A stretch of DNA of 64,000 bases from Candidatus Melainabacteria bacterium (GTDB taxonomy: Bacteria > Cyanobacteriota > Vampirovibrionia > Vampirovibrionales > Vampirovibrionaceae), in the NCBI GenBank assembly GCA_050247195.1, contig JBFWUP010000001.1:853725-917724 (forward strand), in the 5' to 3' direction. Positions 10,885 to 49,295 of this stretch are shown one piece after another. The translations under genes were made by a program, and so were the position numbers. The notes under the pieces are model-generated. The model saw only the letters and a program-made list of their open reading frames with translations, was not told the origin of the DNA and searched no databases. Each line of letters begins with the position of its first letter. Positions within the stretch are counted from its first letter, which is position 1.

Positions 10885-11909
10885 GAGACCGGGGCGGAAC
10901 CACAGCCGGTGGTCATGGGTTCAAACCTCAGGGACGCTTGGCCCAGGCGGGAGCGGATGCCGTTGAACCAGGCCCGCGCTTCCATGGTGGCTTTCCCGGG
11001 CGGCTGCAGGGTCAGGATCTCGATGGGGCCCGAGCCGGTCTGGACCCAGAGGCCGTTGGCGCTGGCGCCCAGGATTGCGCCGGGTTGGCCGGACGGCAGA
11101 CTGGCCGGCGCGGGGGCCCCGGGCGGGGTGCTGCGGATGATTTTGAGGGTCTCCTCACCCAGGCGGGTTTGCGTGGCCGGCCAGGGCTGAAACGCGCGAA
11201 TACGGTTATGCAGGGCGTCCGCCGGTTGGGTCCAGTCCAGCCAGCCATCCTCCCGGGTGCATTTGCCGGCGTGGGTGGCTTGGGCGCCATCCTGGGGCGT
11301 GCTGGCCAGAGAGCCGTCGGCGCGTTGCAGCAGGGTGGCCACCAGCAACGGGCCACCGGCGGCGGCCATTTTTTCGGTCAGGCTGGCGGTGGTGTCTTCC
11401 GCCGTAATGGGCACCACACGCTTAAGCAGAATGTCGCCCGTGTCCACGCCGATATCGGTCAGCATGGTGGTAATGCCGGTTTGAGGGAGGCCCTGCAGAA
11501 TGGCGTGCTGAATGGGGTTGGCGCCGCGAAATGCCGGCAGCAGCGAGGCGTGCACATTCACTGTGCCGTGGCTGGGAATGTCGAGCACGGCCTGGCTGAG
11601 GATCTGGCCGAAGGCGGCGGTGACAAAAAAGTGGGGGTTCAGGGAACTGAGCGTGGCCTGCAGGGCGTCATCCTTGCGGATACTGGCGGTCTGATGCACC
11701 GGCAGCCCCAGAGATTGCGCGGTCTCTTTGACCGGCGGGGCGGTGAGCTTTTTGCCGCGCCCGGCCGGTTTATCCGGCGGGGTGACCACGGCGCACACGG
11801 TGATGCGCGGCTCCGACTGCAGCGCCTGCAGCGTGGGCACGGAAAAAGCGGGGGTGCCCAGAAACACCACGCGGATCGGCTCGTCAGCGGGGATAGGTGA
11901 GGTTGTCAT
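10881..11909 (-). CDS. fmt: Methionyl-tRNA formyltransferase
   Basis: N-terminal ...IRVVFLGTPAFSVPTLQAL... formyltransferase core. Start at ATG 11909 (MTTSP). The track's longer ORF overlaps def. The 4-nt ATGA overlap with rsmB suggests coupling. Confidence 0.85.
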   Translation of the reverse strand: MTTSPIPADEPIRVVFLGTPAFSVPTLQALQSEPRITVCAVVTPPDKPAGRGKKLTAPPVKETAQSLGLPVHQTASIRKDDALQATLSSLNPHFFVTAAFGQILSQAVLDIPSHGTVNVHASLLPAFRGANPIQHAILQGLPQTGITTMLTDIGVDTGDILLKRVVPITAEDTTASLTEKMAAAGGPLLVATLLQRADGSLASTPQDGAQATHAGKCTREDGWLDWTQPADALHNRIRAFQPWPATQTRLGEETLKIIRSTPPGAPAPASLPSGQPGAILGASANGLWVQTGSGPIEILTLQPPGKATMEARAWFNGIRSRLGQASLRFEPMTTGCGSAPVS

Positions 11910-39283: not shown

Positions 39284-39555
39284 TCAGGCCAGATAGCCAC
39301 GCCGTGGCAGGCGTTGCTCCTGTGGTTTTTTCTGTGGCTGCCCCTGCTGATGCTGACCACCATGCTGTTGCTGCCGGCGGCTTTCTTCCTCGCGTCGGGT
39401 GACTTTCTCCTGGCTGGTTTTGGCCTGTTCGGTTTCGGCCACCCGCCCCTGAATGAACCGTGCGTTCTCCACCGCCTCCTGTTTGTCGGCGGTTTCTCTG
39501 GCTTTATAGTAGGCACCCGCTGCGGCGGCTGCCACGTTGGTGGGTGAAATAAACA
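39284..39555 (-). CDS. Hypothetical small Gln/Glu/Arg-rich protein (about 90 aa)
   Basis: GTG start with AAGAGGAAAA 6-8 nt upstream, found by reading the sequence. The track's longer ORF (to 39664) has no RBS. Low complexity. Confidence 0.3.
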
Positions 39556-39784
39556 CGGTTGTTTTCCTCTTCTCGCGGACATGACATGAATCAAAATCAT
39601 ATCCTATAAATATAAAAACATTTTTTAATGAAGATTTGCGACTTTCCGGGGTAAGTGTTACCAAATTGTTACAAAATTTTCAGGGTCTGATGCGCGCCAA
39701 ATTCACGCCCTGAGCGGGTTTGAAAATTTCAAGAGGGGCGCGATCAGAAAATGCAGGCAATTTTTTACCGGGTACCGCGCTGTT

Positions 39785-41182
39785 TTGCGTGAACGCTGGT
39801 GGTCGCGTTTGCGGTTTTCACCGGGGAAGTCGTCAAGCGCCTTACCCGCACAAAAATGGGAAAAACCGTTTTTATGCCAGTGGGGGAAGTCTGATCCGGT
39901 CACACCCGGCACCCTGCACCCTTCGATCCAGGGGTGGGCGATATCTGAAAGCAGTATCAGCGTTCCGCACCTGGCGCAGGCAGCGTCACCGGACTATTCA
40001 CCTGCGGATACAGCGAGAGGCAGCGTTTTTTTGAGCACCATCGGCAGCACAACCCACTTTACCGGCCTACCGTCTATTTTCGGGGGTCCGGCCAACCAGA
40101 CAACTGCTCCGTCACGTTCGGTCGGGGTGAGCGCACCGGGTCACCCCGGTGAGGCTTCCCTGGCCGGACTGGCGGCCCCTTCCCCAGCCACATCCACCAC
40201 TTTCGCCCGGGCCGGGATCACCCCGGGCAGTGGTCAGCCACCGTCCGCCTTGGTTTCAGGAATTTCTCCGTTTGCCTTTACCGGGGGCACCCGCAGCGTG
40301 GCCGAAGAGACCGCCCTGCTGCGTCGTTCGCCGGTCATCGATCTGTCCGGCCGCCGGGCGGCCGACCGCACCTTTGGGGATGTTTTTACCCACAAGGCCG
40401 GCATCTGGGCCTCGCGCATGGGCGCCGGCGAGCTCTTTGATCACGCGTTTGAATCCATGGGCAAACGCGGCTTTGATCCAGTACTGAATACATCTATGGA
40501 AAATACCTTACTACTGGGTAAGCCAGATTTAACAAAGAGCATTTCTAAAACCTACCCATATGGTTATGAGGGCTTATTCTCACTACGTGGTGCTCAGGAT
40601 GTTACACCTGCATATCTGCGTAGCCCGAAAGCTTATAAAGACCTGTTGCATTACAACTTTAAGCCTCACTTGGAATTCTATCGTCCGTCTAATCTGCGTC
40701 ATCAGATGGCACAAGGTGAAGGTCTTTTTAAATTCGGCCTAAAGGATTACTTCACCAAAACCCTGTGGGGTCGCAATATCGATCCCATTCGCCCGGCCAA
40801 CCTGATCAAAGCCGAGGCGTCAGGTCTTGGAAAAATCTCCGGCGCTGGTGTGGCGCAGGCGCTCGGATTGGGCCTGTTTGGCTGGGATATCGCCAAAACA
40901 ACGAAGACCGCTTACGACAACGCCCGCCACGAAGATGGGGCCGCCACGGTTTCCATTGCTGCCGAGACCGGCAAAGAGTTCGCCAAGCAAGCTACCAAAA
41001 GCCTCATTACTTGGGAAATAGCTGGCGCGGGCCTTGCCGTTGGGCGCAAAGTTTTGCCAGGGGTTAATATTGGCAACCATCACATCCCACTGGGTGGCAT
41101 GGTGGTTGGCGCATTACTGGCAACCGGAATGAACCAAGTTTTGGAGCGAGTCGCACCAAAACCAAAAAAGCACCTGAATTAA
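39785..41182 (+). CDS. Modular hypothetical protein: Ser/Thr/Pro/Gly/Ala-rich N-terminal half, lower-GC foreign-codon C-terminal half ending in a glycine-zipper hydrophobic hairpin; candidate polymorphic toxin or bacteriocin-like effector
   Basis: Track ORF with TTG start; no in-frame ATG until about 40420, so the true N-terminus is uncertain. From about 40480 onward the composition is about 40-50% GC with cgt/ctg/aaa codon preference, unlike neighbouring genes. C-terminus is ...KSLITWEIAGAGLAVGRKVLPGVNIGNHHIPLGGMVVGALLATG... Confidence 0.5.
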   Translation: MRERWWSRLRFSPGKSSSALPAQKWEKPFLCQWGKSDPVTPGTLHPSIQGWAISESSISVPHLAQAASPDYSPADTARGSVFLSTIGSTTHFTGLPSIFGGPANQTTAPSRSVGVSAPGHPGEASLAGLAAPSPATSTTFARAGITPGSGQPPSALVSGISPFAFTGGTRSVAEETALLRRSPVIDLSGRRAADRTFGDVFTHKAGIWASRMGAGELFDHAFESMGKRGFDPVLNTSMENTLLLGKPDLTKSISKTYPYGYEGLFSLRGAQDVTPAYLRSPKAYKDLLHYNFKPHLEFYRPSNLRHQMAQGEGLFKFGLKDYFTKTLWGRNIDPIRPANLIKAEASGLGKISGAGVAQALGLGLFGWDIAKTTKTAYDNARHEDGAATVSIAAETGKEFAKQATKSLITWEIAGAGLAVGRKVLPGVNIGNHHIPLGGMVVGALLATGMNQVLERVAPKPKKHLN

Positions 41183-41446
41183 CTTATTCATTTGGAGGAG
41201 GAGGGGGAGGAGGAGGCGTGTTGGGTCGGGAACCCTCAAGGGGTCCACCTGCAAAAGTTGCAGGTCTGTAATTATGCAAAACAGGTCGGTTTACTTGCCG
41301 ACCTTGAAACCGAAGCGGGGACGCGGCGGAAAAGTGACCCATAGAGACATTCATGATTGTTTACCTTACGGGGTTATGGGGAAACACACGTTGAATCAAC
41401 CCCCAACATACCGCCAGATCGCTTGAAAAGGCAGCGATGTAAATAA

Positions 41447-41686
41447 AGGTAAACCAATATAAGCTATTCAGCCAATAAAGTCGGCAAGCAGTTCACCAAG
41501 TCCCTGATCACCTGGGAAGTGGCAGGCGCAGGTCTGGCCATTGGCCGTAAAGTATTACCCGGTTTTAATATTGGCAGTCATCACCTGCCACTGGGCGGCA
41601 TGGTCGTTGGTGCCGTTGCAGCCACAGCCGCCAACAAGCTACTGGAAAAAATCGCCCCTAAAGTAAAAACCAGAAACCAAGCCTAA
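41447..41686 (+). pseudogene. Start-less orphan copy of the C-terminal approximately 75 codons of the upstream gene (silent cassette or decayed paralogue)
   Basis: In-frame TAA at 41444-41446, then TNISYSANKVGKQFTKSLITWEVAGAGLAIGRKVLPGFNIGSHHLPLGGMVVGAVAATAANKLLEKIAPKVKTRNQA*. Manual alignment gives 43 of 62 aligned residues identical to the main gene's C-terminus, with many synonymous nucleotide differences. No ATG, GTG or TTG start downstream of the stop. Confidence 0.5.
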
Positions 41687-41700
41687 GCAAATTTAGGCTT
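41679..41700 (+). terminator. Hairpin AAGCCTAA-GCAAAT-TTAGGCTT followed by a T-rich run (TTTTCATCATCTTCTTC; the U-tract proper is only TTTT, positions 41699-41702); candidate bidirectional intrinsic terminator
   Basis: 8-bp perfect stem overlapping the orphan cassette's stop codon. The U-rich stretch reads on the plus strand. Confidence 0.5.
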
Positions 41701-42047
41701 TTCATCATCTTCTTCACGTTCGAATTCTCTGGGGCCGCGTTTCCCAAAGCTAACCGCATCCTGCGAGCACCCGAAGAGAACCATCCCTTCCTTGGCTTTG
41801 GCGCTGAAGGCATTCTGTGCGCGGTTGGTGCACATCGCACCGGGGGACGAACCAAACATCACGTTCATGGCGGGGAAACTCCACATCATTCATTAGCGGG
41901 GGAACACTGGAGAAAGAGGCGGCTCTAGGCCGACAGCTTCTATTAAAAAGAATCGACGGCCCCAGCGGGCCATTTATGAATGAATTGTTACAACCCAGGG
42001 CCGCCCACCCCGCCAGGTTGGGTGTGAAAATCGGGCTGGCTTACACT

Positions 42048-43024: not shown

Positions 43025-43375
43025 CTACAGCGGGGTGGCGTCGGCCGGTTTCAGGGCGCCGGTGCCGCCATTGCCGTTGGCGTTGTCAAAGCGCTCCATG
43101 GTTTTTCGGCCCACGGATTCCAGCTCCGAAGAAATTTCCCGGGCTTTGTCGGAGAGGGTGGCCACTTTGGACTTCACGTCCGTGGTGACTTTCTGGGCCA
43201 CATCCTGGGCGGTGTGGGACACTTTCTCCTTGGAGGCGGCCACACGCTGGGCGAGATCTTCGCGGATCAGGCGGCGGGTTTCTTCACCTTTGCGGGGCGC
43301 CAGCAGCATGCCCACCACGGCGCCCACGCCGATGCCCATCAGAGAGCCCATGACGAATTTTTCGAATGACGACAT
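43025..43375 (-). CDS. YtxH-domain general-stress-type protein
   Basis: N-terminal ...GSLMGIGVGAVVGMLLAPRKGEETRR... matches the YtxH consensus (membrane helix plus APKSG-E-R). Confidence 0.6.
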   Translation of the reverse strand: MSSFEKFVMGSLMGIGVGAVVGMLLAPRKGEETRRLIREDLAQRVAASKEKVSHTAQDVAQKVTTDVKSKVATLSDKAREISSELESVGRKTMERFDNANGNGGTGALKPADATPL

Positions 43376-43432
43376 TGTCTTCCTCCTTCTTTCTGCTTAT
43401 TCGGTTGTCTGTAAAAACAGGGGGGTAAAGCG

Positions 43433-43831
43433 TTATGCCTTGCGGCGGGTGAATGACTGGAGCAGCCCGTTAAACAGGGCCCCGCCAACGGCCGATACGC
43501 CCATTTTGAGTCCGCTGGACACAGCTTTTAAGCCTTCGGCGCCTTTGCTGAAAGTGGGTCTGGTGGCTTCCACCCCCCGCTCAATGGCATTCACGCTCTG
43601 CACGGCCTTGGCGCTCAGGGTTTCCAGGTGGCTGACGGTCAGCCGGGTTTCCTGCAGCAGGGGTGAGAGTTCGTACTGGGCCACGGTCATAAACTCATTC
43701 ACCCGGTGCAGCAGCATGACCAGTTTGTACAGCAGCACCGCCAGCAGCAGCGCCACAGGCACAAAAAGGATGAGGTTGAGCTGGATGAGTTGGGAAATAC
43801 CGTTGTCCATGGGAGACTCCCGGGTGATCAA
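43433..43831 (-). CDS. DUF948 family membrane protein
   Basis: Single N-terminal transmembrane helix followed by coiled-coil-like region. Start may be the internal ATG at 43810. Confidence 0.55.
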   Translation of the reverse strand: MITRESPMDNGISQLIQLNLILFVPVALLLAVLLYKLVMLLHRVNEFMTVAQYELSPLLQETRLTVSHLETLSAKAVQSVNAIERGVEATRPTFSKGAEGLKAVSSGLKMGVSAVGGALFNGLLQSFTRRKA

Positions 43832-43842
43832 TGAGTGGGGGG

Positions 43843-44157
43843 CTACATGTCGTAGCCGCTGGCCATTTCTTCGGCCTGCTTGGCGCGGGCCAGTTTTTCG
43901 GCGCGACGATCCCGCTTCACTTTTTCAACCTGGTTCTCAATGCCGTAGCGGGTGCGGTCAAAAATTTCGCGGGTTTTGGGGTCGCTGATTTCATCAGACA
44001 GTTTTTCAGGCAGATCCTTGACGAAATCCTCAACATCGCTGCGGATTTCGTTGCCGGATTTGGGCGCGTACAGCACACCCAGAATGGTGCCGCCAACCAG
44101 TCCGGCCAGCATGCCCAGAACAAAGGAACCAATACTGCTGCGATCATCGTTTGCCAT
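43843..44157 (-). CDS. YtxH-domain protein (second paralogue)
   Basis: ...GMLAGLVGGTILGVLYAPKSGNEIR... YtxH signature. Confidence 0.6.
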   Translation of the reverse strand: MANDDRSSIGSFVLGMLAGLVGGTILGVLYAPKSGNEIRSDVEDFVKDLPEKLSDEISDPKTREIFDRTRYGIENQVEKVKRDRRAEKLARAKQAEEMASGYDM

Positions 44158-47633: not shown

Positions 47634-48473
47634 TTACTGGATCAACCGCAGGGCTTCTTCCAGCAGGTTTTTGTTGGTGGAAATCAGTTTTGAGGTGAAA
47701 TCCATCTGCAGCTTGGCCTGCTGCAGTAGCGCCACGCTGCCGCGGATATCCACGTTGGATTTTTCCAGCAGGCCTTCCCGGATTTCACCTGTGCCGGCCA
47801 CCGGCTCGCCGGAGAGGGCTGTGGTCTGGAACATCTGATCTTCTGTTTCCGCAAGGCCACCGGGGTTCACAAAGTTGACGAGAGCCACTTTGTACAGCGG
47901 GGTGACCACACGGCCCTGTTCGGCAATGCCCACGAGGGTGCCGTCGGAACGGGTTTTGAATTCATCATACTTGCCCAGGAACTTGCCGTTGGCGGGGTCC
48001 ACCCACAGGTTAATGCCCACGGTGGGGGTGTGTCCCGGTCCGCCCTGGCTGTGGCTGGGGTTATTGGCCGTGCCGCCCGGGTTGGTGGCGCCGCCCGTAC
48101 TCACCGGATTGCCGTCATCGCCCAGCATGTAGCCCTGCAGGGCATAACCCTTGCTGTTGACCAGATTGCCTTCAGCATTGAAGCGAAAGTCGCCCAGGCG
48201 GGTGAAGAAAAGCCCGCCATCGGGCTTGCGCACGGCAAACATGCCGTTGCCCTCAATAAACATGTTGGTGGGCGCGGTGCCGGGTATGGCTTTGCCCTGT
48301 TCCGTACTGCGCGGGGTCTCACTCAGCCGCACGCCGTTCACATAATCCGAGAACGTGGAGGTGACCTCCCGGTAGCCCGGTGTGTACATATTGGAGAGAT
48401 TCTGGCTCAGGGTGCCAATCCAGCCCTGGGCGGCCTTCTGGGAGTTCAGCGCTGTAATGAAGGGGTCAAACAT
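47634..48473 (-). CDS. Flagellar hook/basal-body rod family protein (FlgE/FlgF/FlgG-like, short)
   Basis: Conserved rod/hook N-terminus (...MYTPGYRE...) and C-terminus (...SNVDI...LLQQAKLQMDFTSKLISTNKNLLEEALRL). Confidence 0.6.
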   Translation of the reverse strand: MFDPFITALNSQKAAQGWIGTLSQNLSNMYTPGYREVTSTFSDYVNGVRLSETPRSTEQGKAIPGTAPTNMFIEGNGMFAVRKPDGGLFFTRLGDFRFNAEGNLVNSKGYALQGYMLGDDGNPVSTGGATNPGGTANNPSHSQGGPGHTPTVGINLWVDPANGKFLGKYDEFKTRSDGTLVGIAEQGRVVTPLYKVALVNFVNPGGLAETEDQMFQTTALSGEPVAGTGEIREGLLEKSNVDIRGSVALLQQAKLQMDFTSKLISTNKNLLEEALRLIQ

Positions 48474-48515
48474 GCCGGGTTACTCCTGGTTGCGCCAAAC
48501 ACGGCGTTGGCGTCG

Positions 48516-49295
48516 TTATTCCAAATCCCACGGTGATGACTGCTGACGACGGGGATGGCCGTCCTGTTCCGGTGACTGATCCTGGTATTCCAGCGTGCCG
48601 ACAGGCAGATTGCGGGCAATCATGCGCTGGCGCAGGTCATCCAGTTGCTGCTTGATGTAGAAGGCGCCGGCGCGGTCGGCTGAGACGAAGCTGGCGGACA
48701 CCTGCCCGTTGACGATGCGCAGAATCAGCGAAGAGTCCTTGTCCATATCGATACGGATGGCCTGTCCGGTTTTATAGCCTTTTTCAATCAGGCGGGTCAT
48801 ATTGTCGGAGAGCGTGTACCCGCCGAAATCCAGCTGGCCGCTGCCCGTGGTTTTAAATACGGTGTCCAGCGGTACGCTGCCCATCACAATGGGCAGGGCG
48901 GGTATCACAACCTGCTTCAGGTAACTCAGGTCATCGGGGCCCAGCTGGTGCATCAGCAGGGTGAGATCCTGCGGGGAGAGATCCTGATCATCGGCGCCCG
49001 TCCTGCGTTGAACCGGGCCAGGATTATCGGCGTCAGTCACCGCCGGCTGAACGACCGGCGCGGGGGTGGTTTCTCTCTGCGCGTTTGCAGCCGGTTTCTC
49101 GGCGGCAGGGGGTTCGGCCGTGCGGCTGGTGGCGCCGGGCTGGGGAAGACCGGCTTCCTGGACGCTGCCCAGTAAATCCAGAAACGCCAGATCCAGTGCG
49201 TCCAGGCCACTCTGGGCCGTGCTGCCCTGGACACGCTGCACGCGTCCGCCGTATTGCAGGGCATAGGCTTTCAGTTGGGCGTTCTGAATGTCCAT
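48516..49295 (-). CDS. fliK: Flagellar hook-length control protein FliK-like
   Basis: C-terminal region (...SLILRIVNGQVSASFVSADRAGAFYIKQQLDDLRQRM...NLPVGTLEYQDQ) fits the FliK C-terminal (Flg_hook) pattern. Pro/Ala-rich central linker. Position between fliJ and the hook-like gene. Confidence 0.5.
   Translation of the reverse strand: MDIQNAQLKAYALQYGGRVQRVQGSTAQSGLDALDLAFLDLLGSVQEAGLPQPGATSRTAEPPAAEKPAANAQRETTPAPVVQPAVTDADNPGPVQRRTGADDQDLSPQDLTLLMHQLGPDDLSYLKQVVIPALPIVMGSVPLDTVFKTTGSGQLDFGGYTLSDNMTRLIEKGYKTGQAIRIDMDKDSSLILRIVNGQVSASFVSADRAGAFYIKQQLDDLRQRMIARNLPVGTLEYQDQSPEQDGHPRRQQSSPWDLE

Follow-up and report, generated by a model that had tools for sequence, protein, structure and literature searches.

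The window considered here is a stretch of 64,000 nucleotides from a Candidatus Melainabacteria bacterium (assembly GCA_050247195.1, contig JBFWUP010000001.1), in which the gene of an uncharacterised, predominantly helical protein is followed by a second, start-less copy of its own 3' end, hereafter the fragment. The features of the locus are collected in Table 1. The repeat is evident at both levels of comparison. Nucleotides 40980-41112 match 41481-41613 with 76% identity (the best 133 nt), and tblastn aligns residues 398-461 of the long open frame with 41477-41668 at 71.9% identity over 64 aa (E = 4e-20); over the whole 64-kb window, tblastn returns this single extra copy of the tail and no further one. 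An earlier interpretation of the DNA from its letters and open reading frames (ORFs), referred to here as the sequence-only reading, had noticed the repeat correctly and set its length at approximately 75 codons; the detectable homology comprises ~66 codons. The fragment is in the same frame as the main gene, and five in-frame stops lie between the two, the last of which is the TAA at 41450-41452. Stop readthrough from the main gene into the fragment was considered and rejected: the frames coincide, yet five stops intervene. The sequence-only reading described the fragment as beginning after that TAA and lacking a start codon. It indeed contains no ATG; however, an in-frame GTG at 41519 opens an ORF of 55 aa.

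Table 1. Features of the locus (positions in the window; strand given where one applies)
Feature	Position	Strand	Description
AT-rich intergenic region	39557..39847	.	outside the duplicated block; between a divergent 90-aa gene (39284-39556, -) and the block
Duplicated block	39848..42006	+	present twice in the genome; second copy at L001 9818-11997, on another contig
Palindrome GCACAAAAA-N12-TTTTTATGC	39848..39877	+	30 nt; exact left end of the block
Leader	39878..40030	+	probably not translated; an open frame nonetheless extends back to 39785
Main gene (probable extent)	40031..41182	+	383 aa; residues 1-109 predicted disordered, 110-375 predicted all-helical
Repeat copy 1, expressed 3' end	40976..41182	+	'type A' distal helix ALLATGMNQVLE
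Spacer	41183..41482	.	purine tract, 56-aa minus-strand ORF, 50-aa plus-strand ORF
ORF, 56 aa	41184-41354	-	poly-Pro tail; abuts the main stop; open in both block copies
Purine-rich tract GGAGGAGGAGGGGGAGGAGGAGG	41194-41216	.	begins 11 nt after the main stop
ORF, 50 aa	41274-41426	+	in the spacer
Repeat copy 2, start-less 3' fragment	41483..41686	+	'type B' distal helix AVAATAANKLLE, as in P0002
Inverted repeat AAGCCTAA...TTAGGCTT	41679..41700	.	overlaps the fragment stop; possible terminator
Convergent ORF	41683..41889	-	68 aa, or 61 aa from MNV at 41868; candidate coding sequence

The open frame of the main gene extends from 39785 to 41182 and encodes 465 aa, as the sequence-only reading had it; it lies on the plus strand and starts with a TTG. 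Comparison with homologs indicates that the true start is probably the TTG at 40031, which gives a protein of 383 aa beginning with MSTIGSTTHF. The homolog P0001 starts at the equivalent of 40031, likewise with MSTIGSTTHF, and the start of a second homolog, P0002, is similar (MSSVSTT); the main gene therefore most likely comprises 40031-41182, and the 82 codons upstream of it would constitute an untranslated leader. We also note that the public call for this gene gives 465 aa from a TTG located outside the duplicated block. Public gene calls probably over-extend the N-termini of both the window gene and another family member, P0124.

The structure of the main protein was predicted with AlphaFold from an alignment of 52 sequences, which replaced an earlier, unusable model from three sequences (predicted local distance difference test, pLDDT, 31.8). 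The mean pLDDT is 71.8 and exceeds 90 for about residues 190-380. Residues 1-109, rich in Pro, Ser, Gly, Thr and Ala, are disordered in the model. The modelled C-terminus consists of a long helix (306-341) that a beta-turn connects to the last helix (354-374), with glycine-zipper motifs, and the onset of the fragment corresponds to the middle of helix 306-341 rather than to a domain boundary. The sequence-only reading had described this end as a hydrophobic glycine-zipper hairpin. The sequence was given rightly and a helix-turn-helix is what the model contains, but the hydrophobicity of the glycine-rich helices is moderate, the 19-residue Kyte-Doolittle mean peaking at 1.32. Insertion of these helices into a membrane is plausible from their composition, and the build of the protein as a whole suggests membrane association. 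Neither the main protein nor the fragment has a Pfam match at E <= 1, including Gly-zipper_Omp, _YMGG and _OmpA and Rick_17kDa_Anti, and a scan of 52 family members gave no Pfam domain at E <= 0.01. The gene, the fragment and the small ORFs likewise have nothing in Pfam, NCBIfam, PADLOC or PHROGs. The helical domain, as modelled, is without structural relative.

The tails of the family members compared here fall into two types. Type A (ALLATG.NQ.LE) is present in the window gene and in P0001, while type B (AVAATAANKLLE) is present in P0002 and in both known copies of the fragment. The fragment peptide agrees with the P0002 tail at 47 of 52 positions and with the adjoining gene at 39 of 52, and its distal 18 residues are those of P0002. 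Between the main 3' end and the fragment there are 61 mismatches, 35 of which fall at third codon positions. The ratio of nonsynonymous to synonymous divergence (dN/dS) is 0.10 when read in frame, where dN is 0.21 and dS about 2.1 (saturated), and both other frames give values above 1.4; the sequence-only reading was thus correct that the two copies differ mostly at synonymous positions. As dS is saturated and dN low, the divergence between types A and B arose under purifying selection in full-length translated genes. Since this divergence was built up in working genes, the type-B piece would have been stranded recently, and before the block that now contains it was duplicated. Identical stretches between a gene and its own fragment reach at most 12 nt in the window, and at most 14 nt in the block's second copy. 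With a shared run of 12 nt at most in the window, gene and fragment are poor partners for homologous recombination, and swapping between them is unlikely today.

The locus is present twice in the genome. A blastn comparison of the 2.15-kb block with its second copy (locus L001) gives 82% identity over 2200 nt with sharp ends; beyond the block blastn finds no similarity between the two loci, and the flanks are unrelated. The second copy of the fragment lies at 11453-11650 of L001, after the same TAA and in the reading frame of its gene. The level of identity varies strongly along the block. It amounts to 96-100% at 39859-40058 (leader and first codons), 40209-40308, 41297-41546 (distal spacer and most of the fragment) and 41832-41931, and to about 45-85% at 40409-41296 and 41647-41830. 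The leader differs from that of L001 at 2 positions in 183 nt. Within the main gene, dS is 0.10 over the first 106 codons, which encode the disordered part, and 1.1-1.6 over the folded domain, where dN/dS is 0.08-0.16. We note that a near-identical coding sequence for the disordered part next to a diverged folded part is the opposite of the usual pattern. The near-identical non-coding stretches have no Rfam match, and their folding z-scores are 0.14 and -0.96; their conservation is better explained by recent common origin. Taken along the whole block, the uneven identity probably traces back to a recent segmental duplication that was modified by recurrent ectopic gene conversion between paralogs. 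Just outside the block, the AT-rich island pointed out by the sequence-only reading is confirmed: the G+C content is 42.5% at 39500-39799 and 59.7% over the window as a whole. The sequence AATTGTTACAA, which forms an 11-nt direct repeat at 39664-39674 and 41983-41993, was tried as the two ends of an element and rejected: two or more matches occurred in 7 of 100 shuffled sequences, a frequency compatible with chance; in L001 it occurs at the right end only and is absent upstream.

The main gene belongs to a multi-copy paralog family. Among 5.8 billion proteins, its only close homologs are P0001 (80% identity) and P0002 (69%), both of which come from one Melainabacteria metagenome-assembled genome (MAG). 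A protein encoded on contig 1 of assembly GCA_050182425.1 has 100% identity with the product of the flanking DppA gene, and its locus is the same as the window. P0001, P0123 and P0125 are encoded on contigs 3, 4 and 8 of GCA_050182425.1, respectively, and P0002 (AB7P76_05575) carries the same locus-tag prefix. The position of P0001 on contig 3 of the assembly that also contains the window locus identifies it as a paralog and not an ortholog. P0123 and P0125 are more distant, with 37% and 31% identity to the window protein, and GCA_050182425.1 contains at least five paralogs of the main gene. A profile search of 1.84 billion cluster representatives retrieved 70 clusters at E <= 1e-3, 29 of them at E <= 1e-10; another, word-indexed protein search run with a profile retrieved 3 proteins, and protein-pattern scans of GTDB genomes and JGI metagenomes retrieved no relatives. 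The taxa found so far are Melainabacteria/Vampirovibrionia-type genomes and metagenome contigs only. The neighbours of the family loci are housekeeping genes, different at each locus. The locus itself is carried by two assemblies. The fragment is conserved at L001 and absent downstream of P0123, P0125 and P0129, the three other family loci considered.

The full-length paralogs are mosaic. The 79 informative sites of the window protein fall into 17 runs, and none of 100,000 shuffles gave as few (P < 1e-5). The sites that agree with P0002 against P0001 cluster at alignment columns 131-151, 173-194 and 330-359; the window gene resembles P0002 as far as GGMVVGA and P0001 thereafter, with the breakpoints within the hairpin region. 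This significant mosaicism points to gene conversion as the probable source of the patches. No mosaic tract in the full-length paralogs is traceable to the fragment. As regards local conversion between each gene and its own fragment, concordant and discordant sites occur in about equal numbers, which favours neither outcome.

For the fragment at 41483-41686 we favour the explanation that it is a displaced 3' end, a recent fossil of recombination between two diverged paralogs, and we hold belief and doubt in it to be about evenly balanced. A type-A 3' end, together with the DNA downstream of it, would have replaced the type-B 3' end of a gene, leaving the last ~66 type-B codons without a start codon ~300 bp downstream. 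The whole transcription unit, comprising palindrome, leader, gene, spacer, fragment and the ~300 bp downstream, would then have been duplicated to a second site in the same genome. Later gene conversion by paralogs may have overwritten patches in both copies and so produced the alternation of ~100%-identical and strongly diverged stretches. The frame of the fragment would be open and coding-like because most of its divergence preceded the stranding, and the few later changes would have arrived in conversion tracts from working paralogs. A start-less, open and synonymous-biased fragment thus need not function, since the pattern can be inherited from before the truncation and from conversion tracts, and the fragment need not be expressed. 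Observed are the repeat and its substitution statistics, the duplicated block, the paralogs and their mosaicism, while we infer both this order of events and the lack of function of the fragment.

Several observations fit this account. The genome contains several paralogs, the copy is truncated and lacks its 5' part, and the mosaicism is statistically supported, as for a displaced 3' end. The two fragments, that of the window and that of L001, are 88% identical, and 13 of their 23 differences are confined to one 31-nt patch amid long identical runs, as expected of the signature of a conversion tract, which the patch probably is. In total, the fragments differ by 16 synonymous and 3 nonsynonymous changes (dN/dS 0.05, binomial P = 3e-7), a bias that a patch derived from a working paralog would bring about. 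Their last codons differ, KTRNQA* in one and EKN* in the other, because the recombination breakpoint falls there.

The locus resembles an ordinary multigene family in its dispersed paralogs, the sharp-ended block, the patchwork identity, the mosaicism and the start-less truncated copy; it differs in that the coding sequence of the disordered part and the non-coding flanks are near-identical while dS of the folded domain exceeds 1. The sequence-only reading had itself named an outcome of this kind, in which the gene would be an ordinary housekeeping one and the downstream segment a 3' remnant missing from relatives. A 3' remnant absent from most relatives is what was found, but the gene is not an ordinary housekeeping gene. 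A tandem duplication whose unit includes the convergent ORF is not supported: the stretches that follow the two 3' ends resemble each other no better than shuffled sequence does. Displaced 3' ends have been described in contact-dependent growth inhibition (CDI) loci as a 'fossil record' (PMC4927057). The fragment is best described as a displaced 3' end in a multigene family that recombines; events of this kind are known, and the family in which it is met here is uncharacterised.

Other observations weigh against a displaced and functionless 3' end. Outside the 31-nt patch the fragments differ by 5 synonymous changes and 1 nonsynonymous change (P about 0.007-0.04, depending on the transition bias assumed), a ratio suggestive of selection acting on the frame, or of additional conversion tracts that escaped detection. 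This weakly significant excess is the strongest argument for some selection on the frame. No donor was found for the patch itself. The residues LAIGRK and GSHH are common to both fragments and are not seen in P0002. Both copies of the block hold the fragment intact. The ORF opened by the GTG (41519-41686, 55 aa) is called as a gene in the public record. The comparison with P0002 was made at the protein level.

A less probable alternative, to which we give a clear minority of the weight, is that the fragment serves as a silent donor cassette. It would be a reservoir of an alternative hairpin that is copied by conversion into the adjacent gene or into dispersed paralogs, thereby diversifying a membrane or surface protein. 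Antigenic variation from silent cassettes is known in Neisseria pilE/pilS, Borrelia vlsE and Anaplasma msp2, and the comparison with pilin-type cassettes made in the sequence-only reading is apt as far as the start-less copy and the mosaicism go. As in those systems, a promoter-less and start-less partial copy lies beside an expressed gene, the family is mosaic, with breakpoints in the hairpin region, and near-identical flanks bracket a diverged central coding part in the manner of homology arms. The fragment is also open and in frame, the differences between its sister copies are mainly synonymous, it is retained in both copies of the block, and the distal helix of P0002 is exactly that of the fragment. 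This is in contrast to the absence of an array: there is one cassette per locus, with few and conservative residue differences from the expressed tails and very little amino-acid diversity to offer. Shared identical tracts and evidence of switching are missing. An upstream element precedes each of the full-length loci, which makes both of them look expressed. The longest run shared with the adjoining gene is so short, and dS so saturated, that no recent exchange has occurred between them. The P0002-like patch of the window gene has the diagnostic residues of P0002 and not those of the fragment. Further points against a donor role are the absence of cassettes at the three other family loci and of a recombinase nearby, the weakness of the G-rich tract after the main stop (41194-41216), and the presence of the locus in two assemblies only.

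That the fragment encodes a small protein is improbable. It would be translated from the GTG at 41519 or from a non-canonical codon, and the resulting hairpin peptide of ~55 aa would pair with the full-length proteins in the membrane or antagonise them. The 55-aa ORF called in the public record represents a protein cluster (P0127), the substitutions follow a coding-like pattern, and the predicted helix-turn-helix could stand alone. From the main stop to the fragment, the plus strand is also free of terminator-like sites, which makes co-transcription probable. However, the GTG is replaced by GCG in L001, where the next in-frame ATG would yield only 25 aa, and no Shine-Dalgarno-like sequence is found at a usable distance from the GTG. 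The last codons, moreover, differ between the copies, and hairpin-only genes accompany none of the other family members at three loci.

A more elaborate proposal, which we regard as speculative and quite improbable, is that the two blocks are expression sites of a programmed-conversion system specific to Vampirovibrionia. The palindrome GCACAAAAA-N12-TTTTTATGC would be its operator, the near-identical 5' and 3' parts would act as homology arms, and the fragment would be a donor or acceptor of hairpin variants. If true, it would describe a family of glycine-zipper proteins with disordered N-termini that is diversified by programmed gene conversion.

Very improbable, and largely refuted, is the leading proposal of the sequence-only reading, a polymorphic-toxin or bacteriocin locus in which an orphan C-terminal module has an immunity partner. 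The resemblance in layout is superficial: an expressed gene is followed by a co-oriented start-less 3' module, and small ORFs adjoin both 3' ends. Glycine-zipper helices are also found in some pore-forming effectors. However, the main protein and 52 family members have no toxin, immunity, RHS, PAAR, LXG, TPS or MafB domain, and both tails belong to one domain, with 72% identity over 64 aa. At the protein level no constraint is seen in the small ORFs, which have no homologs and are convergent rather than co-oriented. No partner gene is conserved, and at least five dispersed paralogs lie in housekeeping contexts with no secretion genes adjacent. The locus does share with orphan cdiA-CT/cdiI and rhs-CT/rhsI modules a co-oriented, start-less 3' end downstream that was plausibly displaced and has kept some homology. 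In CDI and Rhs loci, orphan modules are described as displaced 3' ends; immunity genes and, in many cases, transposases accompany them, and the toxins that they encode are different ones (PMC4927057). Here, there is neither a toxin domain nor a co-oriented immunity gene, and the displaced tail is the resident domain; a VENN- or PxxxxDPxGL-like pre-toxin motif and transposase or integrase genes are also missing, and the carrier, of 383 aa, lacks secretion domains (TPS/FHA, RHS/YD repeats, PAAR, LXG, MafB-N). A diversity-generating retroelement, which the start-less 3' copy a few hundred bp downstream also resembles, was rejected: the mismatched sites of the fragment hold 15 A, 15 G, 12 T and 19 C, with no adenine bias and an identity of 68-76%. 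A Pfam scan of the genes within about 5 kb on either side found no reverse transcriptase.

Since neither a cassette system nor a toxin system holds up, the direct importance of the fragment is low. The locus nevertheless defines a lineage-restricted, multi-copy protein family with a confidently predicted helical domain, and it gives an example of intragenomic recombination in non-photosynthetic relatives of cyanobacteria.

The exact left end of the block is formed by the 30-nt palindrome, which is probably an operator or promoter element of the family, judging from its distribution. It occurs once in the window and in none of 100 shuffled sequences. Further sites lie at L001 9818-9847, L008 3038-3067, L004 4975-5004, L010 7777-7806 (minus strand) and L011 5694-5723, with the consensus GCA[CA][CA]AAAA-N12-TTTTTATGC. 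In L001, its position and orientation are those in the window. In L008, it is situated 197 nt upstream of a distant family gene, in the same orientation and with the same 12-nt spacer. The L004 site is a variant whose 5' arm has two mismatches, and it overlaps the start annotated for P0124; we note that the annotated ATG of this gene (L004 5001-5096) is inside the palindrome. When GTDB was scanned with one genome for each species, three matches were returned. In Vampirovibrio chlorellavorus, the palindrome overlaps the start of an ORF whose 538-aa product has a disordered N-terminus as well as Ala/Gly-rich helices. In a Vampirovibrionales MAG, it is 54 nt upstream of an ORF that encodes 150 aa, and the product combines a disordered N-terminus with a clear glycine zipper. 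Neither of these two ORFs is detectably a member of the family. The third match, in a Spirochaetia MAG, lies in AT-rich DNA inside a recombinase gene and was taken as chance. A metagenome scan gave no matches. The 3' arm is invariant and the arms show no co-variation that would keep their pairing, which favours a DNA site (operator or promoter) over an RNA hairpin. The palindrome is thus a candidate operator of a lineage-specific regulon, and it ties the family to other glycine-zipper genes of the Vampirovibrionales, a poorly studied and partly predatory group.

The spacer between the main stop and the fragment has no significant RNA fold and no sign of selection at the protein level. Its initial 115 nt can hardly be aligned with L001, in contrast to the remainder, which is about 99% identical. 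A purine tract related to GGAGGAGGAGGGGGAGGAGGAGG follows the main stop in L001 as well (about 11160-11185), and on the minus strand GGAGGAGGAGGGGGAGGAGGAGG is the poly-Pro tail of the ORF at 41184-41354. Candidate roles for the tract are a reinitiation site, a structure-forming tract or a coding sequence.

The small ORFs named as possible partners in the sequence-only reading, of 68 and 50 aa, are present, but where the block copies have diverged the small ORFs evolve with dN/dS of 0.9-1.2, and none has a homolog in any fetched family locus or a family match. The 50-aa and the convergent ORF are conserved only where the DNA is near-identical overall. In the convergent ORF, the N-terminal 30 aa are identical in L001, as are ~110 nt upstream, and the overall dN/dS is 0.92. 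The ORF at 41184-41354 is conserved solely in its first 20 residues and the poly-Pro tail. Both minus-strand ORFs begin with MNV. The hairpin terminator of the sequence-only reading exists as the inverted repeat AAGCCTAA/TTAGGCTT, which is not conserved in L001.

Among the neighbouring genes, small YtxH/DUF948-type membrane or stress protein genes lie just past DppA at 43025-44157 (minus strand), and no link between them and the locus is seen. The family proteins have disordered N-termini without a signal peptide. Genes of the flagellar rod/hook type, with the FlgE/F/G D1 domain, are located ~6 kb downstream at 47634-49295 (minus strand). A type III or flagellar route is a possibility as a candidate export path for the family proteins.

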